From Candidatus Heimdallarchaeota archaeon (GTDB lineage: Archaea; Asgardarchaeota; Heimdallarchaeia; Heimdallarchaeales; Kariarchaeaceae), in NCBI GenBank assembly GCA_030149205.1, contig JASBSB010000006.1, positions 60,001 through 92,000 of the forward strand: a DNA stretch of 32,000 nt, in the 5' to 3' direction. Shown here one piece after another: positions 9,945-31,062 of this stretch (the stretch's first letter is position 1; each line of letters opens with the position of its first letter). The notes under the pieces are model-generated. The model was not told where the DNA came from, did not search any database, and worked only from the letters and a program-made list of their open reading frames with translations. A program made the position numbers and the translations under genes.

Positions 9945-9957
9945 TGACAATTTTCCA
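9945..9957. promoter_or_regulatory. Candidate sugar-regulon operator (TGGAAAATTGTCA on minus strand) upstream of apu
   Basis: One mismatch to TGRAAAWTTTYCA; recurs upstream of other alpha-glucan genes. Confidence 0.55.
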
Positions 9958-9977
9958 AAAATTTGTTAGATTCGCAA

Positions 9978-11348
9978 TTAATGAACAGAAAAATCATGGT
10001 TTTCAAGGCTAATACCTGATTTTTCATCAAATAGATGTGTTTGAGCACCAGAAAATCTGAAGTGGATTTCTGAACCAATTTTACGTGGTTTATGTCCAAT
10101 TTCACTTAATCTAACCTCTGAACCGAACAGATTGACAAAGATGATTGTAGAAGAGCCTATTGATTCAGTAAAGGTGACTGTACCTGTGATGGAATTAGAG
10201 TCTTTTATTGACAGGATTTCTACCTGTTCTGGACGAAATCCAATAATAACTTCGTTTCCAATGTGGTTTTCTAATAAATCTGGATTTGGATAATCGGATG
10301 GTATTTTGATGAAAGACCCCTCATTTACACGAATTAAAAGTTGTTTCCCTTGTTTGGTAAGTTCACCTTTAACAAGGTTTGTAGGAGGAGCACCAATAAA
10401 CCCAGCAACGAAGGCAGTTCGAGGTTTGTTATACACCTCGCTTGGTGTCCCTAGCTGTTCAATCACGCCTTTGTTCATAACTGCAATTCTATGCCCTAGG
10501 GTCATAGCTTCAACCTGATCATGGGTCACATAAAGTGTTGTTGTTTGTAACTTTGACTGTAATTCTGCTAATTCAGCTCTGGTTGAATTTCTTAACTTTG
10601 CATCAAGATTAGACAATGGTTCATCCATAAGAAATACCTTGGGGTCTCGAATTATGGCACGACCAACTGCAACCCTCTGTCTCTGACCTCCAGACAATTG
10701 CTTTGGCTTTCTATTTAACAGTTCTTCAATTTCCAATATTTCAGCAGTCTGTTTGACCCGTGTCTCAATCTCTTCAAGTTGGTTAATATAATCATGAATA
10801 CCAGGAATCCCAATCGAAAATTTTAACACAAAATACTCTATATTTTTTCTCAATTCAGGATAAACAATCCAAGCTATAACGAAGGATAATGTTATAGCTG
10901 AGAAGAAGACTACCCCAGGAGATCTTAAGATAAATGAATCTAAGATATAGCCAAACGCATAAAAAACCGAAAAGAGTAAAGTATAAGCCAAGAGTTTTAA
11001 CAAACTAACTATTACCTTTTGGGGGGTTGATAAGGTTAGATTCTTTAAACCGAAGGCTAAATTATCTCTGACTGTCATATGAGGATATAAGGCATATGAT
11101 TGAAACACCATTGCAATATCTCTGTCCTTAGGTGGTAATCTTGTGATATCATCGTCATCAACTGTGATTGTACCTGTGGTTGGTGTCTCTAGACCTGCTA
11201 ACATTCGGAGTGTTGTAGTTTTGCCACATCCTGAGGGCCCAACTAAGACCATGAATTCCTTATCAGTTATTTCTAAATTAAGATTTGACACTGCAGGTTT
11301 GTTGGTGCCAAACTGTTTTGTTATTTCATTAAATTTTACCTTTGCCAA
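9978..11348 (-). CDS. malK: Carbohydrate ABC transporter ATPase (MalK-like) with an inserted hydrophobic hairpin
   Basis: Walker A GPSGCGKT, Q-loop VFQSYALYPHM, signature LSGGQ, Walker B FLMDEPLSNLD, H-loop YVTHDQ and C-terminal TOBE region (GFRPE). TTG start preceded by SD AAGGTGA. About 85 extra residues at aa 104-188. Confidence 0.93.
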   Translation of the reverse strand: MAKVKFNEITKQFGTNKPAVSNLNLEITDKEFMVLVGPSGCGKTTTLRMLAGLETPTTGTITVDDDDITRLPPKDRDIAMVFQSYALYPHMTVRDNLAFGLKNLTLSTPQKVIVSLLKLLAYTLLFSVFYAFGYILDSFILRSPGVVFFSAITLSFVIAWIVYPELRKNIEYFVLKFSIGIPGIHDYINQLEEIETRVKQTAEILEIEELLNRKPKQLSGGQRQRVAVGRAIIRDPKVFLMDEPLSNLDAKLRNSTRAELAELQSKLQTTTLYVTHDQVEAMTLGHRIAVMNKGVIEQLGTPSEVYNKPRTAFVAGFIGAPPTNLVKGELTKQGKQLLIRVNEGSFIKIPSDYPNPDLLENHIGNEVIIGFRPEQVEILSIKDSNSITGTVTFTESIGSSTIIFVNLFGSEVRLSEIGHKPRKIGSEIHFRFSGAQTHLFDEKSGISLENHDFSVH

Positions 11349-11363
11349 AATAATTTCACCTTT

Positions 11364-12908
11364 TTATTTGATTCCACCACTGGTTATTCCTCCAGTTAAT
11401 AATCTCTGTAAACTCATAAATACAACCATGATTGGTAAGGCAGCTAATATACTAAAAGCGCTTAACAGTTGGAAGTAAGGAGGGTTATCAGGGGCGCTTG
11501 TGTTCTGATACAGATAGAACATTAATGGTAGAGAGGAAGATGGATTTTTCTCTCCAACAAAGATTTGAGCCAGAGCAAATTCGTTCCAAGCCCCTAAGAA
11601 TGTAAATATTGCAACTGCAACCATCCCAGGTGCTGAAAGTGGAATAGCAATTCTTAAAAACGCGCCTAGATCAGTTGAACCATCAATTAATGCAGCCTCT
11701 TCAAGGTCATAGGGTAAAGTATCAAAATATCCCTTCATCATCCATACATTATAGGCTAATGCGCCAACGAAATAAGCAAGTAGCAAGCCAGATAGTTTGA
11801 ATGTTCCCCCATCAATGTAGAACAGAGGAATAGAGAAGAGATAAATCTCTCGTCCTCCACCAAAAAAGCCGAGGTTTTTCCAAATAATAAACTGAGGAAT
11901 CAGCAGAATAATTCCAGGAAACATTTGAGTTGCAAGAACAAGAAATTTAGAAGTGTTTCTCCCTTTAAACTTGTATCTTGAAATTGCATAAGCAGCTGGA
12001 AGGGATATAAACATACCTCCGAGTGATGTCCCAAATCCTAAAACAAGTGAGATCATGAATGAGCTTGAAAATGAGGAGCTGTTGGGATTGATTATAAAAA
12101 TTACACTAGAATAATTTCTTACGAAGCTTCCCAATGGGTCACTTGGAACTATAGATTGTTTTTGAATGTCAACAGCATTACTCATTGAAAGGATTAATGT
12201 GTACACTATTGGCACCACGGTATAAATAAAAAATAAAATAAGGATCAAAAAAGTAAAAAGGCTGGTTAAAGAGAAGTTTAAATTTTGAAAGAGATTTTTC
12301 CTTGACTTATCTTGAATTTTTCCAACCTGATCTAATTTAAGATTTGACCTATACCTCTTTACCGACAAAACTGTCCCAATCATTGAAATGGAAAAAAGAA
12401 CCCATATATTGAGGTTTAATATTAGCTGAAAGAGTAGATCACGTTCAGAATAGGTAGCTGACATTGGTAGGGGAATACCCACAAACTGCCATGCGTGTGA
12501 ACTTAAGGAATTTAATTCATTCACCAGCCAGTTATTTGGAGTAATTTTATAAGATTCACCTGTCCAAAACGCAAGAAACCAGAGAAAATAACTAATGAGC
12601 ACCATGACCATAGATGGCTTTAACCCCTTACTATAATCCACCTTAAAATAGAAATAAAGAACGGAGATTGAAAAAATACCTCCCATAAGCGTCATTACAA
12701 TTAGATTACTGAGGATTTGGGGAACATATACATCAGTAGGATAATCTCCCCTTGGAAAGAGAGGAGGGGGTGAGGTCCACTGTCCTACAATATAAGTAAC
12801 TCGGTTCCATATCTTTAGCTGAAAATTCCAAAATGCCCACATGAACATCATTGCAGTAAATAAAATTGTTAAAAAGGAAAACAATTCCCCTTTGCTTCTA
12901 TCAGTCAT
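11364..12908 (-). CDS. malG: Carbohydrate ABC transporter permease MalG-like with about 200-aa N-terminal membrane extension
   Basis: AAYAISRYKFKGR, QMFP and EAA loop YFDTLPYDLEEAALIDG; start overlaps the malF stop (GAGGAGG SD, ATGACTGA). Confidence 0.9.
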   Translation of the reverse strand: MTDRSKGELFSFLTILFTAMMFMWAFWNFQLKIWNRVTYIVGQWTSPPPLFPRGDYPTDVYVPQILSNLIVMTLMGGIFSISVLYFYFKVDYSKGLKPSMVMVLISYFLWFLAFWTGESYKITPNNWLVNELNSLSSHAWQFVGIPLPMSATYSERDLLFQLILNLNIWVLFSISMIGTVLSVKRYRSNLKLDQVGKIQDKSRKNLFQNLNFSLTSLFTFLILILFFIYTVVPIVYTLILSMSNAVDIQKQSIVPSDPLGSFVRNYSSVIFIINPNSSSFSSSFMISLVLGFGTSLGGMFISLPAAYAISRYKFKGRNTSKFLVLATQMFPGIILLIPQFIIWKNLGFFGGGREIYLFSIPLFYIDGGTFKLSGLLLAYFVGALAYNVWMMKGYFDTLPYDLEEAALIDGSTDLGAFLRIAIPLSAPGMVAVAIFTFLGAWNEFALAQIFVGEKNPSSSLPLMFYLYQNTSAPDNPPYFQLLSAFSILAALPIMVVFMSLQRLLTGGITSGGIK

Positions 12909-14400
12909 TTAATTCCTCCTCAGGAAAAGTCATTTGGTATGCTTTAGAAAAAAGCACAAGTATAATAAACACCACGAAACTTAATGCAGCTCCTGCGGCA
13001 AATTCTGGGCCACTCCCTAGACCCTGTTGAATTAGATAATAAATATAAGTTATAAATATATCATACCCCTTCCTATTTCCAAGACCAGTTTGATTCTGAG
13101 AGAGAATGTAGAATACATTAAAAAGATTAAAAGTCCATATCATTCCCAATAAGGCAACTGTCCTTAATGTCGGGATTACATTTGGGAAGGTAATATTTCT
13201 AAATTCTCCCCAAGCTGAAGCCCCGTCAATTCTGGCGGCCTCATATAGATCCTGGGGGATTGATTGAAGAGCTGCTAGGAACGACATCATCATAAAAGGG
13301 ATTCCTAGCCAGATATTAGTAAGTATGGCGGCAAGAAAAATGGTTTTAGTTGAATAACCTAATAAGTAGAAGTCTGAGCTGAAAAAGAATTTAGTTTTAA
13401 TATTATAGACCTTCACAACATCTGCTCCAAAAAATGGCATGCCTTTCATTAATGCAGATTGATTGTTAAGTATGGACAGTACTGTCAGAACAATAACCAC
13501 TAACAAGATTAGCGCTTGTTGAACTTTCTTGTTGACAGATCTATTAGATTTGGTGAATACAATCCAACCTATCACCGAAACTGTCAATATTAACAATCCA
13601 GTATCCAAAAACGACAAACGAATTTCAGAACCTGGAACGAATGTCTGAGCGGCTATTCTTCCTAATATACCGTTATCTTGGTTAAAGATGAAATTTCTCC
13701 AAACAAGAGCTGTGATAAATGAAGGTATTGCCCAAGGAAGGATAAAAGTAGCTCTAAAAAAAGTGCGTCCCGTAAATTTCTGGTTTAATAGGACTGCAAG
13801 GAATATCCCAAACAGAACATGGAAAAAGGTGCAAATTGCAGACCAGAGGAATGTATTTAACAGGATTCTAAGGAAATCTCCTATGATGAAGGGACTTGTG
13901 AAGATATTCTTATAGTTCGCAATAGCTAATGTGGTATTACTACCTGATAGAATAATAAAATTTAATCCAAATATTATGAAATAACTCATGAAAGTCATAT
14001 TTAAGAAAATAGCAATCAAAAACCTGTTCAAAAACTTTAGATCTGATAAGATTGAAATACGCTTTAACTGCTTAGTTGTGGTAATAGTTGTGATACTAAG
14101 AGTAATAGCTAGAATTACTGGGAGGAACCCAGCTCCAATTAAACTTGATATAAAGGTAGATAAGTCTACCATGTAGAGATTGTTAAGATCCATAAAATAT
14201 CCTGTGAGGTTTTCAGAAATGGCTATAAGTCCTGGGTTCCTGTAAAAACTCAATAACAGTGCAAATAAGATGGGAATATACACAAACAGGAAAATCAATA
14301 AGAATGAAGGGAAAAGAAAGAGATATGACAATCTTACCCTTCGATCAATATAAAGTGAACTAACAACTCTAGGTGATTGTTCTTTTTCAGATACTGCCAT
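12901..14400 (-). CDS. malF: Carbohydrate ABC transporter permease MalF-like with extra TM segments
   Basis: ANY..IF, NTFLWS, GRTFFR..FILPWAIP, NIWLGIPFMM and EAA loop LQSIPQDLYEAARIDGA. Confidence 0.9.
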   Translation of the reverse strand: MAVSEKEQSPRVVSSLYIDRRVRLSYLFLFPSFLLIFLFVYIPILFALLLSFYRNPGLIAISENLTGYFMDLNNLYMVDLSTFISSLIGAGFLPVILAITLSITTITTTKQLKRISILSDLKFLNRFLIAIFLNMTFMSYFIIFGLNFIILSGSNTTLAIANYKNIFTSPFIIGDFLRILLNTFLWSAICTFFHVLFGIFLAVLLNQKFTGRTFFRATFILPWAIPSFITALVWRNFIFNQDNGILGRIAAQTFVPGSEIRLSFLDTGLLILTVSVIGWIVFTKSNRSVNKKVQQALILLVVIVLTVLSILNNQSALMKGMPFFGADVVKVYNIKTKFFFSSDFYLLGYSTKTIFLAAILTNIWLGIPFMMMSFLAALQSIPQDLYEAARIDGASAWGEFRNITFPNVIPTLRTVALLGMIWTFNLFNVFYILSQNQTGLGNRKGYDIFITYIYYLIQQGLGSGPEFAAGAALSFVVFIILVLFSKAYQMTFPEEELND

Positions 14401-14532
14401 ATTCTAACAGAAATCTTGAGTACTTATTTTAAGAATTCCCCTATTACTTTGCAATTTGGGATGTTTTTTGAATTAATAAATTTATTTCTTTTTCTGATAT
14501 ATGCCTAATATTTTAAACCTAGTCCTTTGACT

Positions 14533-16014
14533 TCACTTTTTCTTTGATTTTCTTCTTTTAATGTCTTGAATCACTGGGATACTAACCAACAAAATAGGAA
14601 CCACTATGAATTGAAAATCTCCCGGGTTTATTGTTGATTTAGATGTAGGCGTACCAGTACCTCCACTTACTAAAATGTCGCTCCAAAACGTGGTAACAAC
14701 ATCAATAAATTGACTTAGTGTTTCATTTCCAGCTAAGTAATTATCAAGTTCAGTTCCAAAAACGGTTTCCAACTGAGCCCATTTTGGATCCACGGGATTT
14801 TTATATGCTCGATCTATAATTCCCTTTATAGCTTTAATATAAGTCCAAGCCGGGGAATTCGTCACTGCAGGGTCTTTAAACACAGATTCACGGGCAGGAA
14901 CATGGTAATAACTTATTGCAGCTTCTGCCATGGCATGAGCAGAACTCATAAATCTGGAGAATTTCATGGCTGCTTCAGCAACCGCACCAGTTGCCCTCTT
15001 GGTTATAACGTAAGCATGTCCACCTAAAGGTGCTCCCTCGTGTCCCTGTTCATCATGTGGTAACCTCATTATCCCTAGATTGGAAGCTGATGCCCAGGTT
15101 CTTGAGCCTGGTGCGGATTTATTGAATTCAGGGGCATTCGTTAGAAAGTTCTTTAACTCCCAAGGCCCCTGTTGAATAAATCCAACTTGTCCTGTGGTAA
15201 ACATAGGATTGATTGTACTCCACCCTTGTTGATCCCAAGGAGGAGTATATGGGGCTGTAACCACATCCTTAAGGAAGGTTAAAGCAGTTCTTGATTCTGT
15301 AGAGTTAATATCTATATTAGCAAATGAGACATTGTCATTCTTAAAAAATCGAGCCCCGTGTCCGTAATATATAGGCTGGGCTCCGAAAAACATTCCTTGC
15401 AATGTAAGCCCATAAACGGGTTTACCTTCAGGATTTTTTAACTGCTTATCCCAAATTTGTTTTGTATAGTTAGTGAATTGCGACCAAGTTAACGAGGTAT
15501 TTAGGGTAAACTTCGTTGTATTAATTCCTGCGTTCTCTAATGTATGTTTGTTATAAAACAGGGCGGGGACATCCACAAGTTGAGGCCATCCCCAAATCTG
15601 TTCGGTTCCTGATTTATCAGGGTAAGACACTAACCTCAAGGCATCTGCGATGAAATCTTTCTTATCGGTTGCATTCAGGTAGGGAGTAATTGGTTGAATT
15701 AGTCCCTGTTGGGCAAATTCCACCACCCAATCTCTTGCTGCCCTAAATACTGTAGGTTCCAACTGGGCACTAAATTGTGTCAGATACGTTTCCTTTGCAC
15801 TGAAAAAGCCCTTTGCCTCTGCTTTAACATTTATTGTGGGATTTGCTGTCTCAAATTCCTTAACTAAACGAAGAACACCTGGTTCTTCACTAGAGTTTTC
15901 AGTGTACCAAAATGTAATTTTTACTGTACTCGTTTGTGCGAATGTGCTACTTGGAAGTACAGAAAACATAAACATGAAAATCACTATAATTGGGAGAATT
16001 ATTTTTTTATTCAT
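14533..16014 (-). CDS. malE: Maltodextrin ABC transporter solute-binding protein, C-terminally anchored
   Basis: Signal peptide without lipobox; ITFWYTE, IWGWPQLVDVPALFYNK, FIQQGPW and LGGHAYVI motifs; S/T linker then PGDF-TM-KRRKSKKK; SD AGGAGG. Confidence 0.87.
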   Translation of the reverse strand: MNKKIILPIIVIFMFMFSVLPSSTFAQTSTVKITFWYTENSSEEPGVLRLVKEFETANPTINVKAEAKGFFSAKETYLTQFSAQLEPTVFRAARDWVVEFAQQGLIQPITPYLNATDKKDFIADALRLVSYPDKSGTEQIWGWPQLVDVPALFYNKHTLENAGINTTKFTLNTSLTWSQFTNYTKQIWDKQLKNPEGKPVYGLTLQGMFFGAQPIYYGHGARFFKNDNVSFANIDINSTESRTALTFLKDVVTAPYTPPWDQQGWSTINPMFTTGQVGFIQQGPWELKNFLTNAPEFNKSAPGSRTWASASNLGIMRLPHDEQGHEGAPLGGHAYVITKRATGAVAEAAMKFSRFMSSAHAMAEAAISYYHVPARESVFKDPAVTNSPAWTYIKAIKGIIDRAYKNPVDPKWAQLETVFGTELDNYLAGNETLSQFIDVVTTFWSDILVSGGTGTPTSKSTINPGDFQFIVVPILLVSIPVIQDIKRRKSKKK

Positions 16015-17392
16015 TGTTTCGCCTCCTTTTTCTAAGAAGTAATGCTACCGAAAATATTGCAAACAGCCCAGTTATAAATAGAAAACTTGGGCTTGATTTA
16101 GCCACACTATTTAGTGGTGTAAATTCTGGTAGATTCGACCAAGGTGAGCTTGGTGGAACCAACAATCTGAGAGCTATGTCTAAAGAGAGTGTGGTCCTTG
16201 GTGCGTTTTGATTTCGTTGAACAAATTTTGTCATCTGATTATTAAAAACATCGAGAACAGACAACCAAGCTGGGTCATGGGGCAGATCTAAAAATACGTT
16301 CATTGAAGTGTTTGCTACTTTTCCGAAATCAGTTGTAAGATCCAAAAATGATGTATTCACTGGTAAATATGATGCTTTTACCAAATTATCTTGTGTATTT
16401 TTGTTTCTCAACATTGCACTTATGGTTTTAACCAAAGGCATATCAGAGCTTTTTGCTTCAGTTGTAAGAAAAACAGAGTATGTTTCAACTGGAGCTGGAG
16501 CAGGCATTGGATATAATCCTAGATTACTCTTACCTGAAAATACTGTTCCCTTGGAAATATCATTGTATTTCAGTGATGAAGCAATGAGCATAGCAAGGGT
16601 CCCATTTGTCTTAAACAAGGATTCAGAACCACCATTCTCCTGAAGCGCCCAATCAGGTGCTGCTTGCTTGACATTTATTGTTTCATTGATGTTAGTTAAT
16701 GCAGCTAATGATGCATTACTATTCACAGAAAGATGAGCAACATCCACTGTGTTATCTTTGAACAAAGCACCCCCTAAACCATAAAACAGGGATAACATTG
16801 GATCTTGAACACTTTCAAAACCGACACCAAACACTTTTTTCAGAGGGTTGGATTGATCGTTTGATTGTACTGCTGCATCACTAAACTTTTTAATTGTATC
16901 TACACTGACCTTGTTGAGGTTTACTAAATCTTTATTTAGGTAAAGAAACTGAGTTGTCGAAGCAAAACCATATCCATAGAGCTTTACCGTGTTGTTTATG
17001 ATACTAGCAGTAGTTTTAGTGTTAGGAGATACTTCAAAAAAACTTGATCCACGATAAATTGATGGAAACACTCCCGCTTCACTCGAATTTGACACAACTT
17101 TAACAAGATTTCTTGTTGCAAGTTGAGGGAGTAAACTATCTGAAGTTATAAGAATCTTAGGGAGTGTCCCTAAAATTTTCTTTCTTACTAGATCATTTAT
17201 TAGCGAACTCTGTGAAACTGTTGTGATCTTGTAAGATGACCCAAGCGATGACGTCACAAGTGTCCCTAATGATTGGGGTACTGATACTATTATCTCAGTC
17301 TGAGATTGTGCTTGAGTGGGAATAACTGATAAGTTCATCCCAGCAGCTAATAATACTACCAGTACAACTGAAAAAAATAATTTTTGTTTCAT
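16007..17392 (-). CDS. Divergent MalE-fold solute-binding protein, C-terminally anchored
   Basis: Colinear similarity to the adjacent malE (LYGY..TTQFLYLNKDL; YGLGGALFKDN..SVNSNASLAAL; W..V..VF..QM..FV). ATG 17392 preceded by AAGGTGA (ORF track starts at GTG 17401). SPSF-TM-RKRRR tail. Confidence 0.7.
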   Translation of the reverse strand: MKQKLFFSVVLVVLLAAGMNLSVIPTQAQSQTEIIVSVPQSLGTLVTSSLGSSYKITTVSQSSLINDLVRKKILGTLPKILITSDSLLPQLATRNLVKVVSNSSEAGVFPSIYRGSSFFEVSPNTKTTASIINNTVKLYGYGFASTTQFLYLNKDLVNLNKVSVDTIKKFSDAAVQSNDQSNPLKKVFGVGFESVQDPMLSLFYGLGGALFKDNTVDVAHLSVNSNASLAALTNINETINVKQAAPDWALQENGGSESLFKTNGTLAMLIASSLKYNDISKGTVFSGKSNLGLYPMPAPAPVETYSVFLTTEAKSSDMPLVKTISAMLRNKNTQDNLVKASYLPVNTSFLDLTTDFGKVANTSMNVFLDLPHDPAWLSVLDVFNNQMTKFVQRNQNAPRTTLSLDIALRLLVPPSSPWSNLPEFTPLNSVAKSSPSFLFITGLFAIFSVALLLRKRRRNNE

Positions 17393-17511
17393 TATACTCA
17401 CCTTCGTGTTAAAAAAACATCTAGACTCACTTAAAAAAGTAATCGTTCTTATAACTGTGACCTAGGTGTCTTTTTGGATAAATTTGTAAGTTCAAATTTA
17501 TTTGATAATTT

Positions 17512-17524
17512 TGGAAAATTTACA
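17512..17524. promoter_or_regulatory. Candidate sugar-regulon operator (TGGAAAATTTACA) upstream of the SBP/mal operon
   Basis: One mismatch to TGRAAAWTTTYCA; overlaps the glgP stop; about 57 nt upstream of TATA-like GTTATAAG (17455-17448). Confidence 0.5.
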
Positions 17525-19505: not shown

Positions 19506-19537
19506 GTTTTTTTTTATCTAACTTATTATAAATTCTC

Positions 19538-19550
19538 TGAACAATTTCCA
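19538..19550. promoter_or_regulatory. Candidate sugar-regulon operator (TGGAAATTGTTCA on minus strand) upstream of glgP
   Basis: One mismatch to consensus; lies 4 nt upstream of TATA-like TTTATAAT (19533-19526). Confidence 0.55.
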
Positions 19551-19583
19551 TGCATAATCAATGTTTATAAAAAAATATGTTAA

Positions 19584-20918
19584 TTATTGGGCTTCGATAG
19601 AATTATTTAGGAGGATTTCCTCCTCTCTTCTCATAGATTCGGATTCCAAGGCCTTTAACCTCATGAATAAGTATGAAATGATAACAATGAAAATTAGAGA
19701 AATTCCAGTCAAAATTAGTAGATTACTAATGGTGTAATAAAGAATCAAGGTAGTCACTACTACAGCACCACCAGCTTGGGCTAAAGAGAAACCTGTATTC
19801 ATAAACGCACTTACTTTTCCAAGTTTTTTGTTATCAATCAATGTCTGAAACAGAGAGCTAATTGGGATGTTAATCAACACATTTACTGAACCTATTAAGG
19901 TCATTGAAAGATAGAGCCAAAAGACAGGATATTGTAAACTAGGAGCGAAACCCAGCAGAACTATTGAGACGCTAATGAAGAACAAACCTAAAATAATAAT
20001 AGTTAGTTTATGTTTCACGTGCCCAATTAAAGAAAAAATAATTGCTGTAACAATACCGATCAGTGCAGTATAACTTAATAAATATCCAAATGCCTGAGCG
20101 TTTAATTTAAAACTAACTTCAAGATAAAATGCAAGGACAGGATTGATCATTCCAATTGCAATTGAAGAAAACAGGAATGTTATTAAAACAAACAGAATCA
20201 CCCGGTCATTCTTAATAGCTTGAAATCCTACATTTAGGTCTCTCACAACTATTCTAGCGCTAAGCTTATCCTCAGATTTAGTTGGTTTAAGATTTCTTTT
20301 AATAAAAAGTAAAATGAAAGCAGACAAAAGATAGGAAATTGCATCTATAAGAAAAGCATATTTGAGCCCGACCAGTCCAATAGTTGTACCTGCCAATGCT
20401 GGGCCTATAAAACTGGAAACTTGTAACTCAGTCTGTAAGACACTGTTTGCTCTGACTATTTGATCAGTTTCTACAAGTTGGGGTATTGACGCTCCTTTTG
20501 CTGGTGAGAAAAAAAGATATATAGTTGACCCGATGAATACAACACTGTAAATTAAAACTAACGTATGAACAAAAAACAGGACAAGAACACTTAATCCTGA
20601 GAACAACTCAGAAATTATCAAAATTTTTTTCCGATCATATCTATCTACAAATACTCCAGCAAAAGGTCCAATAAATATTGTAGGTATTAATCTAAAAATT
20701 GTCACCAAAGCAACAGCCTGTGCAGAAAATTCCTGAGAAATTGGTAATGTTATATCTAAGACTAAAAACAATGATGCAATGAAAGTAAATGAGGAACCAA
20801 TGTCTGAAACTAATCCTGACAAAGCTAGTATGATAAAATCCCCGTTATTCTTTAAATTATTGACAGGTTCAACTTCAGGTGGTATTGGGTAAAGTGAATC
20901 ACTCACAACTAAATTCAA
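19584..20918 (-). CDS. MFS transporter, DHA3/macrolide-efflux-like
   Basis: About 12 hydrophobic segments; motif A GPFAGVFVDRYDRKKIL, VRANS..Q, GPALAG. Start codon uncertain (TTG 20918). Confidence 0.88.
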   Translation of the reverse strand: MNLVVSDSLYPIPPEVEPVNNLKNNGDFIILALSGLVSDIGSSFTFIASLFLVLDITLPISQEFSAQAVALVTIFRLIPTIFIGPFAGVFVDRYDRKKILIISELFSGLSVLVLFFVHTLVLIYSVVFIGSTIYLFFSPAKGASIPQLVETDQIVRANSVLQTELQVSSFIGPALAGTTIGLVGLKYAFLIDAISYLLSAFILLFIKRNLKPTKSEDKLSARIVVRDLNVGFQAIKNDRVILFVLITFLFSSIAIGMINPVLAFYLEVSFKLNAQAFGYLLSYTALIGIVTAIIFSLIGHVKHKLTIIILGLFFISVSIVLLGFAPSLQYPVFWLYLSMTLIGSVNVLINIPISSLFQTLIDNKKLGKVSAFMNTGFSLAQAGGAVVVTTLILYYTISNLLILTGISLIFIVIISYLFMRLKALESESMRREEEILLNNSIEAQ

Positions 20919-20930: not shown

Positions 20931-21071
20931 TTAACTTTTTGAATGTACCTTATATATCTACCAAGTTTTATTTTTTATCACGTATTATTGTAGCTTAACA
21001 CAGGTCCTGTAAGTTTAGATAAAAAATATGAATACTCTGTAGAATTATTTAGAATTTTACATTCTTTACAA

Positions 21072-23681: not shown

Positions 23682-23684
23682 ACA

Positions 23685-23700
23685 TTCGCTAAGTTGCGAA
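23685..23700. promoter_or_regulatory. Operator candidate TTCGC-TAAGTT-GCGAA between TATA box and MMPL start
   Basis: Inverted repeat with the same arms and spacing as 23814-23829. Confidence 0.7.
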
Positions 23701-23702
23701 AG

Positions 23703-23710
23703 TATATAAA
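23703..23710 (-). promoter_or_regulatory. TATA box of the MMPL gene
   Basis: TTTATATA on the minus strand, 22-29 nt upstream of ATG 23681. Confidence 0.6.
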
Positions 23711-23813
23711 GAGTAAGTTTTTGCACAGATATAAATATAAATATGCATAAACTTAACATTAACGAGTAGAAAAACTATATAATTAAATAATTATTCAAGA
23801 GAACAAATATATT

Positions 23814-23829
23814 TTCGCATTAATGCGAA
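23814..23829. promoter_or_regulatory. Operator candidate TTCGC-ATTAAT-GCGAA (perfect 16-bp palindrome)
   Basis: Perfect palindrome in the divergent MMPL/regulator intergenic region. Confidence 0.7.
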
Positions 23830-23853
23830 TTTAATTAATGCTAAACAAAAGTA

Positions 23854-23863
23854 TTTATATAAA
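23854..23863. promoter_or_regulatory. Palindromic TATA box TTTATATAAA upstream of the regulator
   Basis: 18-27 nt upstream of GTG 23881; A-rich BRE-like CAAAAG just upstream. Confidence 0.55.
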
Positions 23864-23880
23864 TGTAGGCTCGGTACTGT

Positions 23881-24846
23881 GTGATCAATAGATTACATCA
23901 TGATTCTCAGAGCAAAAATACAATTTCTGCATTTAGTGATGCATGGAAATCTCCATTTAAAGGACTTAAATTCCAGTTTTTAGAGTATGAAATATTGAAG
24001 CTAATCATGTATGGAGGCATAAATGAAGTAAGTGAAATAATTTCAATTGTTGAAGGTGAGTTTCAGGATATTAAAAAATCTAAATCACAATTGTATCGGA
24101 TCATTGAAAATTTAGAAACTGAAGGATTGATTTCATCAGAAAAATTGGGAAAGGAAAAAGTACTCAAGATAGAAAATAAAGGAATTCAAGAGTTAGGAAA
24201 TTTATCTAGGTATGTTTTGATTTCTTTGAGAGAAATCCTAATAGATGAAGGAATATGGAATGATATCTATGAAAAAGTTTTGCCTCAAACAGGGTGTCTA
24301 AGAGTAGATAACATTGCCTATTTAGGCCCACAAGCTCACGGTATTGTTCAATTACTTGACAGTTGTAGATATTGTGAATCTCCTAGATATCCCAACGATG
24401 ATTTACCAACCAGTCCAATATTCTTTCAATTACCTTATTCTGACACCACCCTGTCTCTAACAGAGAAAGATAAAATCACAATAATACAAAATCAAAAAAT
24501 CGACGACCTCATGTTGAAAACCAATAGTTTGGATATTGTTCTATCGTTTACCCTTATTTCCAAGTTTAAGGAACGTTCTTTTGAAGAGTTGAAGAGAATT
24601 GTTAAGCCAGAAGGCTTTTTAATATTTGTTGAACCTGTTAAAACAACACCACATGTTGTAATTATGATGTATAATCAGATTCTTATGGCGAATTCATTTG
24701 AGACCTCAGAATTTTGGAGGATAGACACCTTAGATAATACCCTTCCTTCAGTAGAGGAGCTTGAAAACCTATTAATGAATGAATTTACGAAGGTTACAAA
24801 GATAAAAGATTCCTTGTTATCTATTTTTGTCTGTCAAATCACCTAA
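23881..24846 (+). CDS. Winged-helix (PadR/MarR-like) transcriptional regulator fused to a methyltransferase-fold domain
   Basis: EYEILKLI...SKSQLYRIIENLETEGLISSEK...LKIENKG (wHTH). C-terminal NSLDIVLSF...FEELKRIVKPEGFLIFVEP matches class I MTase motifs; glycine-rich motif I is degenerate. Confidence 0.7.
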   Translation: MINRLHHDSQSKNTISAFSDAWKSPFKGLKFQFLEYEILKLIMYGGINEVSEIISIVEGEFQDIKKSKSQLYRIIENLETEGLISSEKLGKEKVLKIENKGIQELGNLSRYVLISLREILIDEGIWNDIYEKVLPQTGCLRVDNIAYLGPQAHGIVQLLDSCRYCESPRYPNDDLPTSPIFFQLPYSDTTLSLTEKDKITIIQNQKIDDLMLKTNSLDIVLSFTLISKFKERSFEELKRIVKPEGFLIFVEPVKTTPHVVIMMYNQILMANSFETSEFWRIDTLDNTLPSVEELENLLMNEFTKVTKIKDSLLSIFVCQIT

Positions 24847-25553
24847 GGTGAGACTGATCTTAAATAATCTATAAAGCCAATCATATCTGAATTTTTCCAA
24901 TCTAAACCATTATAGATCTTTTGAATACTACCTGCTTGGTCTACTACATACACGAGAAATTGATGTGCCCAGAGGCGATGAGTCATATGTGACATGTTTC
25001 CACCATGATTAGGGGTATACTCTGAAGGAATAGTGCCAGCTGTTTTTGTGGTGGTGGTAGTCTGATTGATTGGAAAGAAAACAAAGTTCCAATCCTTAGT
25101 GATTTTATCAATCTGAGTATGATTTCCAAGTAATACATGAAAGTTACTCGGCAAGTTCAATGTCCCCATTGTCTGATTTACATAATTTCGAACAGTTGTC
25201 AGATTATCATAATAATCGAAATCAATCTCAAAAAATGTTAAATCATTTACCTTAGATTTTTTTTGTAAATCAGTGTATACGTTATTAAGCTTGGTTGTAA
25301 TGACTGAACACCCATCAGGACAACTTGCATAAAAAAATGTGACAAGTCGAATAGTTCCATTACTGGAAGCAAAGTTGACAGGTTTGTTATTGATATCCTG
25401 GAGTGTGAAATCCTTAGGCTTCCACAGAAACTGTCTTGGGTCATTGGCTTTTGTAACATCTGCCCATAAGAAACCAGCAGCAACTATCCCCCCTAGAATG
25501 ATTAAACCAATAATTGTACCTTTCACCTTAGGGTTTTCAATTGAAAGACTCAT
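24843..25553 (-). CDS. SCO1/SenC family copper chaperone
   Basis: N-terminal TM anchor, FTLQDINNKPV, FFYASCPDGC (CxxxC), HQFLVYVVD (conserved His); stop overlaps the regulator stop by 4 nt. Confidence 0.88.
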   Translation of the reverse strand: MSLSIENPKVKGTIIGLIILGGIVAAGFLWADVTKANDPRQFLWKPKDFTLQDINNKPVNFASSNGTIRLVTFFYASCPDGCSVITTKLNNVYTDLQKKSKVNDLTFFEIDFDYYDNLTTVRNYVNQTMGTLNLPSNFHVLLGNHTQIDKITKDWNFVFFPINQTTTTTKTAGTIPSEYTPNHGGNMSHMTHRLWAHQFLVYVVDQAGSIQKIYNGLDWKNSDMIGFIDYLRSVSP

Positions 25554-25713
25554 TAAATGAAAGCAGCAAATTTGCTTTAAAAATATTTAGCTTTTATCGA
25601 CACTAAATTATTGTTAAAAAAAAAATAAGTATACAAGCAATATATCAAAAATTAATACTGTTGTTAATTGATATGTCAATAATAGATTAAAAAAATTAGC
25701 TTTTTTAACTATT

Positions 25714-26742
25714 TCATGGTTCATTTTTCCATAAAAAGTCAACTAATTCAGCAGTTCTGCTTGCATACCCCCACTCATTATCATACCATGCTAGCACCTT
25801 TAGAAGAGTGTTTTCAACCAACATCATACTAGGAAAATCAATAATTGCACTGTGTGGGTTTGTATTGAAATCCACAGAAACAAGAGACCTCCATTCATAG
25901 TCTAAGATACCTTTCATGTAACCATGTGCTGCATCTTCAAACACTTTCTGAACATGATCTTTAGACTCAGCATCCTTTTTCAGTCTGACTGTTAAATCAA
26001 CAAGTGAGACATTAGGAGTGGGTACTCTAATTGAGATTCCATCCATTTTACCCTCTAAGTGAGGCATTATCACACCTATTGTTTTCGCAGCCCCTGTTGT
26101 TGTTGGGACTATTGACATAGCTGCAGATCGGGATCTTCTGAAGTCTTTGTGCTGAGAATCAAGCAACCGCTGATCATTGGTATAAGAATGAACTGTGCTC
26201 ATAGTGCCATGTTCAATTCCAAATTCATCATCCAAGACCTTACATACTGTAGCCAGACAGTTTGTGGTGCATGATGCGTTGGAAATTAAATAATGTTGTT
26301 TAGGATCATAGATTTGCTGATTTACACCAAGAACTATCGTTGCATCCACACCTTTTCCAGGAGCAGATAGCACTACTCGTTTCGCACCAGCTTCTAAGTG
26401 TTTACTCATCAACTCTCGAGTCCTAAAAAACCCTGTTGACTCAATAACATAATCTACTTCCATCTCCTTCCAAGGAAGTTTACTTGGGTCTTTTTCAGAT
26501 AAAACTGTAAATTCATCACCATCAAAAATCAGGTTATTAGTCTCATTGTGAACTTCAACAGAACCATTAAACCTACCATGTACACTATCAAACTCAAACA
26601 GATGTGCAAGCATGTCTGGTGAACTCAGATCATTGATAGCTACAATGTTTACCGGGAGCTTGTGTTCTAAAAACGCTCGTGTAACCAATCTCCCTATTCT
26701 GCCAAACCCGTTTATTGCGACATTAGGTATATCTCGTGCCAT
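25714..26742 (-). CDS. gap: Class I (bacterial/eukaryote-type) glyceraldehyde-3-phosphate dehydrogenase
   Basis: VAINGFGRIGR, AINDL, SNASCTTNCLA (catalytic Cys), HSYTNDQ, PTTTGAAK, RVPTPNVS and WYDNEWGY. Confidence 0.96.
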   Translation of the reverse strand: MARDIPNVAINGFGRIGRLVTRAFLEHKLPVNIVAINDLSSPDMLAHLFEFDSVHGRFNGSVEVHNETNNLIFDGDEFTVLSEKDPSKLPWKEMEVDYVIESTGFFRTRELMSKHLEAGAKRVVLSAPGKGVDATIVLGVNQQIYDPKQHYLISNASCTTNCLATVCKVLDDEFGIEHGTMSTVHSYTNDQRLLDSQHKDFRRSRSAAMSIVPTTTGAAKTIGVIMPHLEGKMDGISIRVPTPNVSLVDLTVRLKKDAESKDHVQKVFEDAAHGYMKGILDYEWRSLVSVDFNTNPHSAIIDFPSMMLVENTLLKVLAWYDNEWGYASRTAELVDFLWKNEP

Positions 26743-26839
26743 ACTGAGAATACAAATGCTTATGGATATAAAAGTTCTAAGCTACCCACTATTTTGAAAA
26801 TTAAAAAAGATTAAATACAATTATACTAAATGCTGAAAT

Positions 26840-26852
26840 TGAAAAATTGTCA
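26840..26852. promoter_or_regulatory. Candidate sugar-regulon operator (TGAAAAATTGTCA) upstream of gap
   Basis: One mismatch to consensus; TATA-like TTTTATAT at 26773-26766. Confidence 0.55.
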
Positions 26853-26879
26853 ATTAATTATTTATTTTTTATACTAAAT

Positions 26880-29543
26880 TTACACAAATTTTTTCTTTTT
26901 GAGGGTGATTACAAGACCAATTACAACAAAAGCACCTAATACAGGTACAATGTCCACAGGAATAAATCCACCACCAGAACTTGATGAAGTTGCACTCGTG
27001 GGTGTAGATGTGGGTGTCGCTTTGGCCGTGATAACAACCTTGAATGTCTGTGAGACAAAGTTTCCACTCGCATCAAAGAGGTTTGCTTTCAAATCATGCG
27101 TACCAACACCTAAGGAAATATTAAAGTTGACAAACACATGATAACCTACAACTTTCTGAGTACCGAGGAGAAGATTACCGTCGAACAACTCAACTTTGGC
27201 AAGTCCAGAAAGAGAACCTTGTGCATCATCATGAAGCAACGCATCAACTCTGAAATCTACCGTTGATGTACTTGTTGCAACCTCAAAAGAAGCCCCATTA
27301 GTCACAAGTTTACCTGCGTTTGTGACATTGAACGACAAGAATTTTGGTGCGGTAGTATCCTTGATGAACTTTTCGCCTGATCCAACAGGTAATACAGATG
27401 CTACTTTAGAGTTAGCAAGGTCATACCTTGATAAGGTATCATTCTGTAGAGTAGCTGGTGAGCCAACTGGAACTAACATGTCAACCACATTGGGGTCAAT
27501 TGGTCCGTCAACTCCACCACCAAGCTGCCAATCAGCACCCCATTTTGCACCTGCAGACCTAAATTTGTTGAAATCATCACTTCCAGAGAAGAGATAATAT
27601 TTCCAGGTGTTATTTGGTTGTCCACCAAGCATTTTGGTTGGAATTACAATTGAGGCCACATTTGTTGTGGTATTGCCAGATGCTTGAATTCCTGATCCCG
27701 CAAAAGGAGCTGACAGATCTGAGGATTTGAAATATTGGTTCACAAAACCATCTGATTTTAATGCATAATTCCATTGTGTTGAGGTCTGAACAGCCTCATT
27801 CCACAGAGTAGATGTAGCACCACCTGGTCCATTGTCAACATAAACGGAAAAGATAACAACTGAGAATCCTAATGAAGAACTAAAACCATTGGTCAGGTTA
27901 GCAAACGTAACCCTGAATTCGGTGTTATATTGATTAGAAAGAACTTCAAAGTTCAATATATCAATTACACCAGGTGCAAATGGTGGATTGTTTTTCGGTA
28001 TCCTCAGTGATAGATCACCCTTGGGATCAGAAATGTTATATTGAAGATTTCTGGGGGGTTCGATTCCAACTAACAGGGTGAAATTACCCTGAGTAATCAT
28101 TGAGGTTTTTTGACCTGTTTTATTGAAACCATAAGTTGTGACGTAATATGTGATATTTCCGGTGTAGTAAGGACCAATTGAAACTTCATAGTTGTTGTTT
28201 AGATTCTTATAACTGAGCCATGACATATTCTTTGACATAAAAGTACCAGTGTTGTTTCCTCTCCAGTAAATAGTGGTTCTTACAGGAACATTTGCTGCAG
28301 GATCTGCATTAATGCTAGTACCATCAGCAAATTTAAGGTTATTCTGTGCCTGAATGGTGACGGTTTTGTTTGGTGCAACGAAACCACCGGTGGGGGAGAT
28401 CCCACCTAAATAGGTCACATTGAAAGGTGGTAGGGGAGCCACATAAAAGCTCCCTGAAACGGTACCTACACTAATGTCAGTTGCATTGTTCAATCCTTTT
28501 GCCCACCAGAACACATGGTCACCATCTTGGAACTGAGTCGCATCGATTTTTACAACCTGTTTATCTGAACCTAAACCAACTCTTGAGCCAAACTCCTTAT
28601 ACGCATACGTTTTATATGAGGTGTTTACCCCAGTTCTTTCAACTTTGTAATCGAATTGAACTAATGCGCTACTATTAGCATTGTCATTAACGGTTGGTTG
28701 ACTGCTGTTCCCAGGAGAATGAAACCATGTGTTGAAACTCATGATTAGTGGATTTCCTGCCGTTAGATTACCACCTGCTAAGTTATCTGTCTCATGAGAT
28801 AGATACCCTATCTGTGGTGTTGGAGCTAATGCTGGTGAACTAATTGATGTAACTGAGATGTTAAGATATGTCTTAAGTGTCATAAATTCTGATGTTGTTG
28901 CGGCTGGAACACCTGCTTGACTTGGGACTGAATCATACACATTTGATCCGTCTCCACCTGAAGTGAGGACCAATAACCCTATTGTCGCGCTTGATGGTAC
29001 AGTTGCGTATAATAATGACCAATCAAACCTGTATGTTTTGATTTGGGATGTGCCATCATATTTCCATCCATAACCTGCGAGAGGTGTGGTACTGGTTGCG
29101 ATAGTTGCCCCAGATGAATCATAGAGGTCACCATAGCCTTGTTCCCATCCAGCAGCCCAATATTCTGCTCCAAAGTTACTAGGTAGCTTCACTGGTCTTA
29201 TCCAGTGTGCTCCAGTACTTAAATCAGAATATCCTATACCTGTACCAGGGTTTGTATCAATAAATACTAAGTCACCACCAGTAAATACATCTCCACTTAC
29301 CCTAATGACAAGTGATGATGTATTAACGGTTACATTTACAAATTTAATTTCTTGCTGTGGAAATGCTGCGTCATTTGGTGCATCAGGAATGATATATGAT
29401 GCGCTTGCTGCAGCTGCTTTTGGACTAACTGTACTGTTTGATGCTGGTGTTGCCAACGGCAAACCTGCTAACGCAGTGGGAGTTGATCCAAAAACTAATA
29501 CCAGAAACAAGAAAACTGATAAGCTAACCAATTTTATCTTCAT
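26880..29543 (-). CDS. Cell-surface multidomain glucan-binding protein (DOMON-like/glucodextranase-C and Ig-like modules), no catalytic domain recognised
   Basis: Signal peptide. The aa ~500-887 region is homologous to the apu C-terminus (DPKGD..IDILNF..GFS..IFSVYVD; LGGGVDGPIDPNVVDML; GGGFIP-TM-KKKK). No GH57, GH13 or GH15 motifs seen. Confidence 0.72.
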   Translation of the reverse strand: MKIKLVSLSVFLFLVLVFGSTPTALAGLPLATPASNSTVSPKAAAASASYIIPDAPNDAAFPQQEIKFVNVTVNTSSLVIRVSGDVFTGGDLVFIDTNPGTGIGYSDLSTGAHWIRPVKLPSNFGAEYWAAGWEQGYGDLYDSSGATIATSTTPLAGYGWKYDGTSQIKTYRFDWSLLYATVPSSATIGLLVLTSGGDGSNVYDSVPSQAGVPAATTSEFMTLKTYLNISVTSISSPALAPTPQIGYLSHETDNLAGGNLTAGNPLIMSFNTWFHSPGNSSQPTVNDNANSSALVQFDYKVERTGVNTSYKTYAYKEFGSRVGLGSDKQVVKIDATQFQDGDHVFWWAKGLNNATDISVGTVSGSFYVAPLPPFNVTYLGGISPTGGFVAPNKTVTIQAQNNLKFADGTSINADPAANVPVRTTIYWRGNNTGTFMSKNMSWLSYKNLNNNYEVSIGPYYTGNITYYVTTYGFNKTGQKTSMITQGNFTLLVGIEPPRNLQYNISDPKGDLSLRIPKNNPPFAPGVIDILNFEVLSNQYNTEFRVTFANLTNGFSSSLGFSVVIFSVYVDNGPGGATSTLWNEAVQTSTQWNYALKSDGFVNQYFKSSDLSAPFAGSGIQASGNTTTNVASIVIPTKMLGGQPNNTWKYYLFSGSDDFNKFRSAGAKWGADWQLGGGVDGPIDPNVVDMLVPVGSPATLQNDTLSRYDLANSKVASVLPVGSGEKFIKDTTAPKFLSFNVTNAGKLVTNGASFEVATSTSTVDFRVDALLHDDAQGSLSGLAKVELFDGNLLLGTQKVVGYHVFVNFNISLGVGTHDLKANLFDASGNFVSQTFKVVITAKATPTSTPTSATSSSSGGGFIPVDIVPVLGAFVVIGLVITLKKKKFV

Positions 29544-29705
29544 TATAATTTCCTCTAATTATTTTGGTTATTCTTGGGGTAGGAAAGGGTTATATATAAG
29601 TTAGCTCATTTCTATAATGATAAATACAACCTTTTGGATTTTTTTTGAGATCATTGTAATTTTTGAGATAAAATTTAATCATTTTCTAAATTTTGAAATT
29701 TTACC

Positions 29706-29718
29706 TGAAAAATATTCA
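29706..29718. promoter_or_regulatory. Candidate sugar-regulon operator (TGAAAAATATTCA) upstream of the 887-aa surface protein
   Basis: One mismatch to consensus; overlaps the stop codon of the kinase gene. Confidence 0.5.
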
Positions 29719-31032
29719 TTTTTTTGAGAAATTTTCCAATAATTTGGAATGATAAAGTATAGATATTATTAAAGTATCAATAAGAAAATATCTCTGTTGA
29801 TTAGCTGTCATACGTATTTTTTCCAACTTTACTCCTCGATTTAGAAACAGCTCAAAAGTCTCTTCAAGACTTATACCAGATAAATCAAGCGAATTTTCCC
29901 AGTGTTTGATCGCATAATGAAGTTCTTTTAATGAACGGAGAATAAGAAATCTGTAGAATAAATGCTTCTGAGAAATACTTAGTTCAAATAGATCACGTAG
30001 TTTTACATGGATTTCTTTTGCCTTTGATAATAAAAGGTTTTCAAAATGCAAGAAATAGTTAATCTGATTTATGATTCCTGAATAATGACTAGCAAAGTCA
30101 TATAGGGGGGACCCAATTAATACATCCTCTATATCCATAATCTCTAATTTATCCATAGTTAGAATGAGTTGCCGCCACCAGAGATCCCCATGGATTGGTT
30201 GCTCAAGATCTGTCATGAGATTTGAAAAGTCAACTACCTCTTCGAGATGAGAAAAATTTAATTCTAGTCCAACTTTTTTAATTTGCTCATTGAATTTCGC
30301 CACCCATCTGGAAAGGTATTCTTTAACATTGAACAGTGCGGTCTTTGCCTCATCAGTAAGTTTTGAAAGATGTAGCCCCTCAATTATGATTGAACCTAAT
30401 GCTATATGAAATCTTGATATCAAATTGATAGATCTAGCTGTAAATTCTACAAAATCATCCTTAAATTTTGGATTTTGTGAGCTTATGTAGTCCCTTAGCA
30501 ATGAACCTGTGTAAGTATCAGCATTCTCCTGTTCTGAGATTTCTTCAAAAAGAGCAAAGATGGTATGGGTTCTTCCCTCAACTTGAATTTGCAAAGAGGT
30601 ATAGAGTTTTGGAAACATACCAAATTCGCAAAGTTTTGAAGAAAAAGTGACTTCATTGGATCCAATGAACATTCGAGTGTAAATCTTCATATGATACCTG
30701 GTTCCATCAACCCCAATTAACAAAAAATGTTGATTTGTAGCATCGATATTCAACCTCTCTATACTCTTACACATTATCCCAACTGATTCTAATGCTGTAT
30801 TTACTAATCCAAGAACATCTGTCACAAAACTAAGTGACTCACCTTTTCTTTCTAACCAAATAAAAGCTGAAGTAAAATCATCGTGGACCTTATACAGCCC
30901 ACCCACTTTTTTATTGGAATTTGTACTAACTGGTATGAAGTCAGTTATTTTTATACGGTGTTTGTCCAACCCATAATTTCTTCTGAGAATTTCCTGAGAA
31001 AGGTTAGAAATATCTAGCTTGTTTAGACTCAC
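29716..31032 (-). CDS. Maltokinase-like (Mak/Pep2) kinase, aminoglycoside-phosphotransferase fold
   Basis: YHMKIY (ATP lysine), FHIALG, QPIHGDLWWRQL (compare Mak IHGDLHLGQVL), IMDIE (DFE-like) and SPLYDFA; sugar-gene context; GTG start. Confidence 0.62.
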   Translation of the reverse strand: MSLNKLDISNLSQEILRRNYGLDKHRIKITDFIPVSTNSNKKVGGLYKVHDDFTSAFIWLERKGESLSFVTDVLGLVNTALESVGIMCKSIERLNIDATNQHFLLIGVDGTRYHMKIYTRMFIGSNEVTFSSKLCEFGMFPKLYTSLQIQVEGRTHTIFALFEEISEQENADTYTGSLLRDYISSQNPKFKDDFVEFTARSINLISRFHIALGSIIIEGLHLSKLTDEAKTALFNVKEYLSRWVAKFNEQIKKVGLELNFSHLEEVVDFSNLMTDLEQPIHGDLWWRQLILTMDKLEIMDIEDVLIGSPLYDFASHYSGIINQINYFLHFENLLLSKAKEIHVKLRDLFELSISQKHLFYRFLILRSLKELHYAIKHWENSLDLSGISLEETFELFLNRGVKLEKIRMTANQQRYFLIDTLIISILYHSKLLENFSKK

Positions 31033-31049
31033 TAAAACAAAAAGCAGGT

Positions 31050-31062
31050 TGACAATTTTTTA
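31050..31062. promoter_or_regulatory. Weaker candidate operator (TAAAAAATTGTCA on minus strand) just upstream of the kinase
   Basis: Two mismatches to consensus; shares AAAATTGTCA exactly with the apu and gap sites. Confidence 0.4.

Follow-up and report, generated by a model that had tools for sequence, protein, structure and literature searches.

A 13-bp near-palindrome, TGRAAAWTTTYCA, recurs upstream of carbohydrate genes in a 32,000-nucleotide stretch of DNA from a Candidatus Heimdallarchaeota archaeon (the window, G000:C2:60001-92000), and this raises the question of which factor reads it. The host genome, G000, is 3.31 Mb in size, with 35% GC, 12 contigs, and an estimated completeness of 93.5%. 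A preliminary description of the window proposed the element as the operator of a candidate new regulon and named TrmB- or LacI-like proteins as its potential readers. We consider it very probable that the shared element is a transcription-factor site. To judge by its sequence, it is a box of the canonical 13-bp form recognized by Lrp/AsnC (feast/famine, FFRP) proteins and not a new kind of operator; the earlier proposal that carbohydrate genes share an upstream cis element stands, and the word “new” is withdrawn, because the box is almost identical to the DNA duplex in the FL11 crystal structure. The boxes are probably sites of an Lrp/AsnC-family factor, most likely the FL11-like Lrp encoded at C2:120590.

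Scanning the window recovered TGRAAAWTTTYCA at positions 9945, 17512, 19538, 26840, and 29706, each with one mismatch, and at 31050, where there are two; all coordinates agree with those first reported. Each of the six sites lies 5' of its named gene on the minus strand, which carries nearly all window genes of interest: respectively, an amylopullulanase-like gene (apu), an ABC importer operon that begins with o464 and a solute-binding protein gene (SBP), glgP, gap, a gene for an 887-amino-acid protein, and a gene for a 438-amino-acid protein. Further two-mismatch copies lie in the apu region, at positions 9914 and 9796, and at 29725/29726. At up to two mismatches, all intergenic matches in the window fall in sugar-gene intergenic regions and none in its non-sugar intergenic regions, in agreement with what had been noted by eye. 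The consensus of the sites is TGRAA-AWT-TTYCA.

Archaeal Lrp/AsnC sites are 13-bp (up to 17-bp) sequences of the form abcde-WWW-e'd'c'b'a', for which an AAT/ATT center is optimal, and the Pyrococcus FL11 dimer was crystallized on TGAAA[AAT/ATT]TTTCA, its natural consensus being TTGAAA[AAT/ATT]TTTCAA (PMC2715240; PDB 2E1C). The six window sites, as well as the boxes described below in Lrp promoters, have this 5-3-5 form with an AAT or ATT center, and the window arms are TGRAA-like. The information in the box sits in the G/C-containing arms (TGG...CCA) and not in the A/T center.

The abundance of such boxes in the window was compared with that in the rest of the genome, in which calling of long open reading frames (ORFs) yielded 2775 ORFs and left 2005 intergenic regions with a total length of about 408 kb. 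At the genome-wide intergenic rate, 0.15 one-mismatch matches are expected in the 2.26 kb of intergenic DNA in the window, close to the chance figure of about 0.1 estimated previously, and five were seen (P = 6e-7 for a fixed pattern). At up to one mismatch, coding DNA has 125 occurrences of the pattern and intergenic DNA has 39 (9 of the 39 being a repeat at contig ends), such that 5 of the genome's approximately 30 unique intergenic matches fall in the window. The repeat, a sequence of about 33 nt (…CAATGGATGAAAGATTTTCAGATGAGAGAG) that inflates genome-wide motif counts, lies near nine places that are mostly contig ends (C1:270989, C2:3747, C2:668885, C3:5336, C4:995429, C5:77, C7:77, C7:473476, and C10:11834); an insertion element, of which this sequence would be the terminal repeat, probably breaks the assembly at these places.

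A rival explanation is that the boxes are chance products of AT-rich intergenic DNA, near-palindromes of A-tract and T-tract whose consensus was fitted to its own sites. A look-elsewhere control, meant to correct for that fitting, ran 40,960 palindromic 13-mer patterns (at most one two-fold degenerate arm position) over all equal-length blocks of consecutive intergenic regions. The window block with pattern TGRAAAWTTTYCA had the best P value (6e-7) among about 164 blocks; one neighbor came close at 9e-7, which lends chance some support, and the rest were at or above 5e-6. The rival block, at G000:C2:37547-56056 (4 to 22 kb before the window), has six intergenic regions that match palindromic AYTTTAWTAAART. 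Chance also draws support from a shuffle of the whole window, in which matches at up to two mismatches were not significantly in excess (18 versus 13.7), because coding matches dominate that count. A non-palindromic, leave-one-out de novo search of seven sugar intergenic regions picked by gene function alone argues the other way: it recovered the same six sites at width 13, leaving the permease intergenic region (14401-14532) without a site, with a score of 73.0 against a null of 58.8±3.0 (maximum, 67.6) in length-matched random sets, none of which reached that score (0 of 139; z of about 4.8). The boxes are locally overrepresented.

Lrp proteins usually bind their own promoters, and we therefore counted matches at up to two mismatches in every intergenic region of G000, which encodes four full-length Lrp/AsnC proteins and four stand-alone RAM proteins. 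The region upstream of the Lrp gene at C2:120590 (C2:121067-121237) contains four matches, the highest count among the 2005 regions (background, 0.64 per kb), at spacings of 63, 9, and 32 bp; the promoter is laid out as a box, 6 nt, and TTAATA at -34. No boxes were found in the promoters of the other three Lrp genes. The encoded protein (G000:C2:120590-121066, minus strand, 159 amino acids, with Pfam HTH_AsnC-type and AsnC_trans_reg domains) lies 28.6 kb beyond the window end, consistent with the earlier remark that the window itself lacks the cognate regulator.

FL11 (PH1519, from Pyrococcus sp. OT3/P. horikoshii) is the best solved relative of this protein (E = 6e-23). In the FL11 contact code, Thr37 and Ala/Pro34 read T(a), Ser36 reads G(b), His39 contacts the T opposite A(c), and Leu24 contacts the T's opposite A(d) and A(e) (PMC2715240). 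The FL11 residues L24/A34/E35/S36/T37/H39 align to L/P/K/S/T/H in the C2:120590 Lrp, so four of the six base-contact residues (Leu24, Ser36, Thr37, and His39) are identical; Pro34 is as in Ss-LrpB, and position 35 is Lys. Applied to this protein, the code gives T, G/A, A, A, A, i.e., a TGAAA arm. The two systems thus share the 13-bp palindrome, a TGAAA-type arm, an HTH_AsnC-plus-RAM protein, and boxes in the regulator's own promoter. They differ in that the window-type arm prefers TGGAA and its second arm is degenerate (RTNCA), and in residues 34/35 (Pro/Lys instead of Ala/Glu). The predicted targets here are alpha-glucan uptake and degradation, whereas those of FL11 are lysine biosynthesis, ATPase, and others; the regulon here looks local, whereas that of FL11 comprises about 200 units; and the host is a mesophile-like Asgard archaeon. 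The abstract of a study on Halobacterium Lrp targets describes the same logic, going from FL11-DNA contacts to half-sites and regulons in a nonmodel archaeon; its subject is haloarchaea rather than Asgard archaea and is not a glucan regulon (PMC4177876).

Orthologues of the C2:120590 Lrp were found in 11 relatives from several genera (41 to 62% identity over complete matches). The Leu, Ser, Thr, and His residues are kept in all 11, and G009 reads STLH in the same loop. In 7 of the 11, a box occurs within 120 nt upstream of the orthologue. The density there is 5.3 per kb, compared with 0.47 per kb over the remaining 35.8 kb of these loci. Exact TGGAAATTRTNCA, in the sense orientation upstream of the Lrp gene, is common to G000, G001, G003, G004, and G009. 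These comparisons of sequence place conserved boxes at the regulator's own gene.

We then built an independent matrix from the relatives' Lrp-promoter boxes only, with no G000 sequence, and scanned all G000 intergenic DNA on both strands. The glgP box ranked first in this intergenic DNA, and the box in the G000 Lrp promoter ranked 4th to 7th. Summed over the seven sugar regions, the score was 54.4 versus 20.6±8.1 for length-matched sets (P = 1e-4; P < 5e-5 with a symmetrized matrix). The glgP and o464/SBP regions fell in the top 0.3 to 0.5% of intergenic regions of similar length, the 887-amino-acid gene in the top 2 to 4%, and apu in the top 3 to 5%. By this measure of sequence, the glgP, SBP-operon, 887-amino-acid-gene, and apu boxes are cross-validated and the gap and 438-amino-acid-gene boxes are not, which reduces the six genes first proposed to four that stand out.

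G001 and G003, which belong to the same genus, are the closest genomes, and their glgP shares only about 51% identity with that of G000. The genes there run in the order gap, SBP/o464 (divergent), glgP, apu, GH57, o438, o887 and are separated by short gaps. A one-mismatch box, TGGTAAATTTCCA, is kept in the promoter of G003 glgP, where 6 nt and TTAAAA at -28 follow it; the box-to-TATA geometry is therefore conserved, at 5 nt in G000 and 6 nt in G003. A box upstream of o438 in G003 also seemed conserved in position and was set aside, as its distance from the real start is probably about 160 nt. Neither G001 nor G003 has a regulator gene within its orthologous cluster; in G003, an Lrp/AsnC gene lies beside an EamA gene 5 kb from gap.

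A number of results weigh against the assignment of the boxes to the C2:120590 Lrp, and some of them favor chance. Outside the window, the motif occurs 24 times in intergenic DNA versus 24 to 26 expected under order-1 and order-3 Markov models, so the genome-wide enrichment for which the preliminary description had suggested a search is absent; any regulon must then be small and local. A control based on counts alone is weaker than that based on P values, with 3 of 38 blocks also reaching five matches, using all-A/T patterns. The orthologous sugar intergenic regions of G001 and G003 have a box in only 1 of about 10 cases, G003 glgP, and thus conservation of orthologous promoters, another check suggested at the outset, holds for that promoter and fails for the others. 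The support is confined to one locus plus the Lrp promoters, and TGGAAATTRTNCA was derived from four of its five matching genomes, only G009 having been left out of the derivation. The gap box scores highly with the window-trained matrix and in the 19th to 50th percentile with the independent one, with which the 438-amino-acid-gene box is also unremarkable. The distance from box to TATA ranges from overlapping to about 105 nt. The three Lrp paralogues searched against solved structures all have FL11 as the best match, and one of them (C7:330287-330772), with Val24, Ser36, Thr37, and Tyr39, could, by its residues, read a similar half-site.

The first of these results bear on chance, which we nevertheless regard as improbable. 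The window block ranks first, its intergenic matches are restricted to sugar regions, the glgP box keeps its position in G003, and a matrix from other genomes selects the sugar regions and finds its top match at glgP. Local overrepresentation without genome-wide enrichment indicates an element that is real but local.

The last of these results bear on a different alternative, namely, that the boxes are a genuine operator of another regulator (the C7:330287-330772 paralogue, a TrmB-family protein, or an undescribed factor) and merely look similar to those of the C2:120590 Lrp. Since all three paralogues checked are FL11-like, the assignment to C2:120590 rests mainly on its autoregulatory boxes. 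The apu, gap, and 438-amino-acid-gene boxes are a TGACA-arm variant that scores poorly with the Lrp-promoter matrix, which would also fit another reader. Sugar regulons of other archaea are run by TrmB-family proteins, and G000 encodes one full-length TrmB, 360 kb away, and about ten other proteins with a TrmB helix-turn-helix (HTH). The motif of TrmB/TrmBL1 (Tgr) in Thermococcales is the TGM, TATCAC-N5-GTGATA (or TACT-N-AGTA). TGM regulons resemble the set described here in that one motif spans glucan-degrading, transport, and glycolytic promoters and its position relative to TATA varies; they differ in motif sequence, as the preliminary description had pointed out, in spacing, and in regulator family. 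There is no intergenic box upstream of the 11 TrmB-HTH genes of G000 (the sole match, upstream of C4:408239, is inside a neighboring coding region), nor is there any TGM-like sequence. With the remaining Lrp promoters likewise devoid of boxes and glgP the top genome match of the relatives' Lrp-box matrix, we consider another regulator unlikely.

LacI-family regulators were rejected. LacI operators are even palindromes of 14 to 16 bp with a central CG, whereas the box is odd in length with A/T at its center, and PF00356 had zero matches in the 93.5%-complete G000 genome, compared with matches in 9 of 14 control genomes. The earlier suggestion of a TrmB- or LacI-like regulator thus gives way to the one Lrp gene with the top box count.

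The position of each box relative to its gene is informative for the individual targets. The best-supported target, glgP (17520 to 19505, minus strand), encodes a glgP-like alpha-glucan phosphorylase (Pfam Phosphorylase and DUF3417). Its box, TGGAAATTGTTCA on the sense (minus) strand at 19538 to 19550, ends 5 nt before a TTTATA that starts at -27 from the ATG, in a leaderless-type promoter. Among the 998 ATG genes of the whole genome with at least 80 nt upstream, TTTATA/TTTAAA peaks sharply at -30 to -26 from starts, and the TATA assignment at glgP is therefore sound. In the same genes, GGTG/GAGG at -15 to -6 marks a second mRNA class; G000 has a large class of leaderless mRNAs beside a Shine-Dalgarno-led class.

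The importer operon (9978 to 17401, minus strand; Pfam and ORF analysis) encodes o464, SBP, two permeases, and a MalK-type ATPase. o464 is a 464-amino-acid secreted protein with a signal peptide and no Pfam match; its start in the longest ORF, GTG at 17401, is probably wrong, as the signal-peptide-like N terminus begins at 17392. The operon's box, TGGAAAATTTACA (17512 to 17524), shares bases with the glgP stop codon, at a distance of about 110 to 119 nt from the o464 start. The apu gene (6270 to 9809, minus strand; Pfam GH57 and Glucodextran_C) encodes an amylopullulanase-like surface enzyme, and its longest-ORF start (TTG at 9809) is also probably wrong, given a signal-peptide-like N terminus from ATG at 9794 with GGAG before it. 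The distal apu box, TGGAAAATTGTCA on the sense strand at 9945 to 9957, is about 150 nt upstream of that probable ATG. A secondary box with two mismatches (9914 to 9926) is 31 bp from it, center to center. Contigs from two DNA sequencing runs, short pieces of a near-identical strain, were compared over 9800 to 29799, and among the differences listed (most are not), a T>G at 9919 in this secondary box is the only one that touches a box. The sequencing runs listed for the organism include none of RNA.

The 887-amino-acid protein (26880 to 29543, minus strand) is secreted and has a Glucodextran_C module. Its box, TGAAAAATATTCA (29706 to 29718), overlaps the stop codon of the 438-amino-acid gene and is about 105 nt upstream of a likely TATA; one or more secondary boxes with two mismatches (29725 to 29738) lie 19 to 20 bp away, within the 3' end of the 438-amino-acid gene. 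The array of main and secondary boxes is not regular. A weaker candidate is the box of gap (25714 to 26742, minus strand; type I glyceraldehyde-3-phosphate dehydrogenase), which reads TGAAAAATTGTCA (26840 to 26852) and is about 70 nt upstream of the gap TATA. The weakest is TAAAAAATTGTCA (31050 to 31062, two mismatches), upstream of the 438-amino-acid gene (29716 to 31032, minus strand), the “kinase” of the preliminary description, which matches no Pfam family; this box overlaps the expected TATA position (-30 to -18 from GTG).

The boxes are nearer to the preceding stop (-5, -3, 20, 27, 33, and 52 nt) than to the next start (17 to 162 nt), as might be expected of a generic structural element, i.e., bent or melting DNA, a chromatin-protein site, or a 3'-end signal of the preceding genes, and the AAT/ATT center is bendable. 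A generic element would be expected to be enriched genome-wide, which was not seen; moreover, the conserved information is in the TGG...CCA arms, the sense strand has no consistent oligo-T run, and the same box precedes the Lrp gene in several genera. We regard this explanation as very improbable. A terminator or RNA-hairpin reading was dropped as well, as there is no consistent T-run and the loop of a 13-nt palindrome would be too small.

If the boxes are sites of the C2:120590 Lrp, as we favor, a dimer would read the two 5-bp arms (TGRAA/TTYCA) around the bendable center; binding here is inferred from sequence. The FL11-like Lrp would then autoregulate and control glgP from a box proximal to the transcription factor B recognition element (BRE). 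In glgP and its own promoter, the box 5 to 6 nt upstream of TATA would abut the BRE, and we speculate that it activates by contact with the TATA-binding protein (TBP) or, alternatively, occludes transcription factor B. Ptr2, LysM, and Ss-LrpB activate through TBP from a constrained site a few base pairs upstream of BRE/TATA, Ss-LrpB acts also from core sites more than 100 bp upstream, and archaeal Lrps can be dual regulators that often control central metabolism and transport (PMC2995911). The glgP promoters of G000 and G003 and the G000 Lrp promoter resemble those of Ptr2 (Methanocaldococcus jannaschii), LysM, and Ss-LrpB (Sulfolobus solfataricus) in having a dimer site just upstream of BRE/TATA; the additional upstream sites and the kinds of targets are further likenesses, and two Ss-LrpB targets have core sites more than 100 bp upstream, as do some boxes here. 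The differences are the half-sites of Ss-LrpB, TTGCAA[AAT/ATT]TTGCAA, the absence of a regular three-box array here, and that the present system is known from sequence alone. Distal boxes (apu, SBP operon, and 887-amino-acid gene) may recruit further dimers or an octamer, and the box over the expected TATA of the 438-amino-acid gene would be in a repressing position. The RAM domain would bind a small effector, probably an amino acid, and so tie alpha-glucan uptake and breakdown to nutritional state.

Elsewhere in the genome, box-like sequences occur near two of the four GH13 genes (one an all-A/T box overlapping a TATA-like run, the other 358 nt upstream) and near genes for malic enzyme, LivJ/LivHM, AzlC, a glutamate-synthase-like protein, aldehyde dehydrogenase, and V-ATPase subunit D. 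The malic enzyme region has three matches, one of which ranks 2nd to 4th by the independent matrix, matches flank a LivJ-like binding-protein gene and its LivHM permease on both sides, and others precede AzlC and the glutamate-synthase-like gene (match regions, C7:83978-84143; C7:229250-229457 and 230757-231278; C2:338328-338651; C4:540342-540475). The malic enzyme, LivJ/LivHM, AzlC, and glutamate-synthase-like neighbors look like typical Lrp targets, which is suggestive, but the numbers are within chance. A separate sequence, TCAGAAATTCTGA, occurs twice about 71.5 kb beyond the window end, once 5' of korB and once in the interval that separates bshC from trxB. With its TCAGA arm, this sequence likewise has the abcde-WWW-edcba form of Lrp sites, and its reader may be another of the four Lrp paralogues.

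The remaining window genes include MFS and MMPL exporters, a divergent winged-HTH-methyltransferase-like gene, SCO1, and prefoldin. Just left of the window, at G000:C2:58271-60379, is a second GH57 gene (702 amino acids) with no box upstream in G000; it is the orthologue of the 4-alpha-glucanotransferase-like gene inside the G001 and G003 sugar clusters. Identical copies of TGGAAAATTTTTA occur at orthologous positions in G003 (L016:6884) and G001 (L018:6496), between lysyl-tRNA synthetase and a 117-amino-acid ORF. A glgP scan of metagenome contigs yielded no close relative for footprinting, the nearest glgP being 51% identical among 5.8 billion proteins, and identical prefoldin and gap proteins were found only on one 181-kb contig, apparently from the source sample. 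One glgP homologue, 43% identical, carries the name Candidatus Hodarchaeales.

To our knowledge, almost nothing has been charted of how Asgard archaea regulate their genes, and only a few of these organisms are in culture. For this locus, sequence alone is enough to name a candidate regulator, the box that it would read, and a few coherent targets: a glucan phosphorylase, an ABC importer of the maltodextrin type, a surface amylopullulanase, and a protein that binds glucan. The prediction is testable with recombinant protein and synthetic DNA, no culture being needed. Supposed new operators are best compared first with the abcde-WWW-edcba Lrp form. We tentatively propose, at somewhat less than even confidence, that an Lrp/FFRP regulator and not a TrmB-type sensor controls starch/maltodextrin capture, import, and phosphorolysis in this Heimdall-group Asgard archaeon through a position-conserved BRE-proximal box. 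So far as we know, the regulation of polysaccharide use has been a role of the TrmB family in the archaea studied so far. If our proposal is true, it would give Asgard archaea one of their first concrete and testable combinations of transcription factor, operator, and regulon, link the sensing of amino acids (or other RAM ligands) to carbohydrate use, and extend the roles of archaeal Lrps from amino-acid and central metabolism to polysaccharide use.

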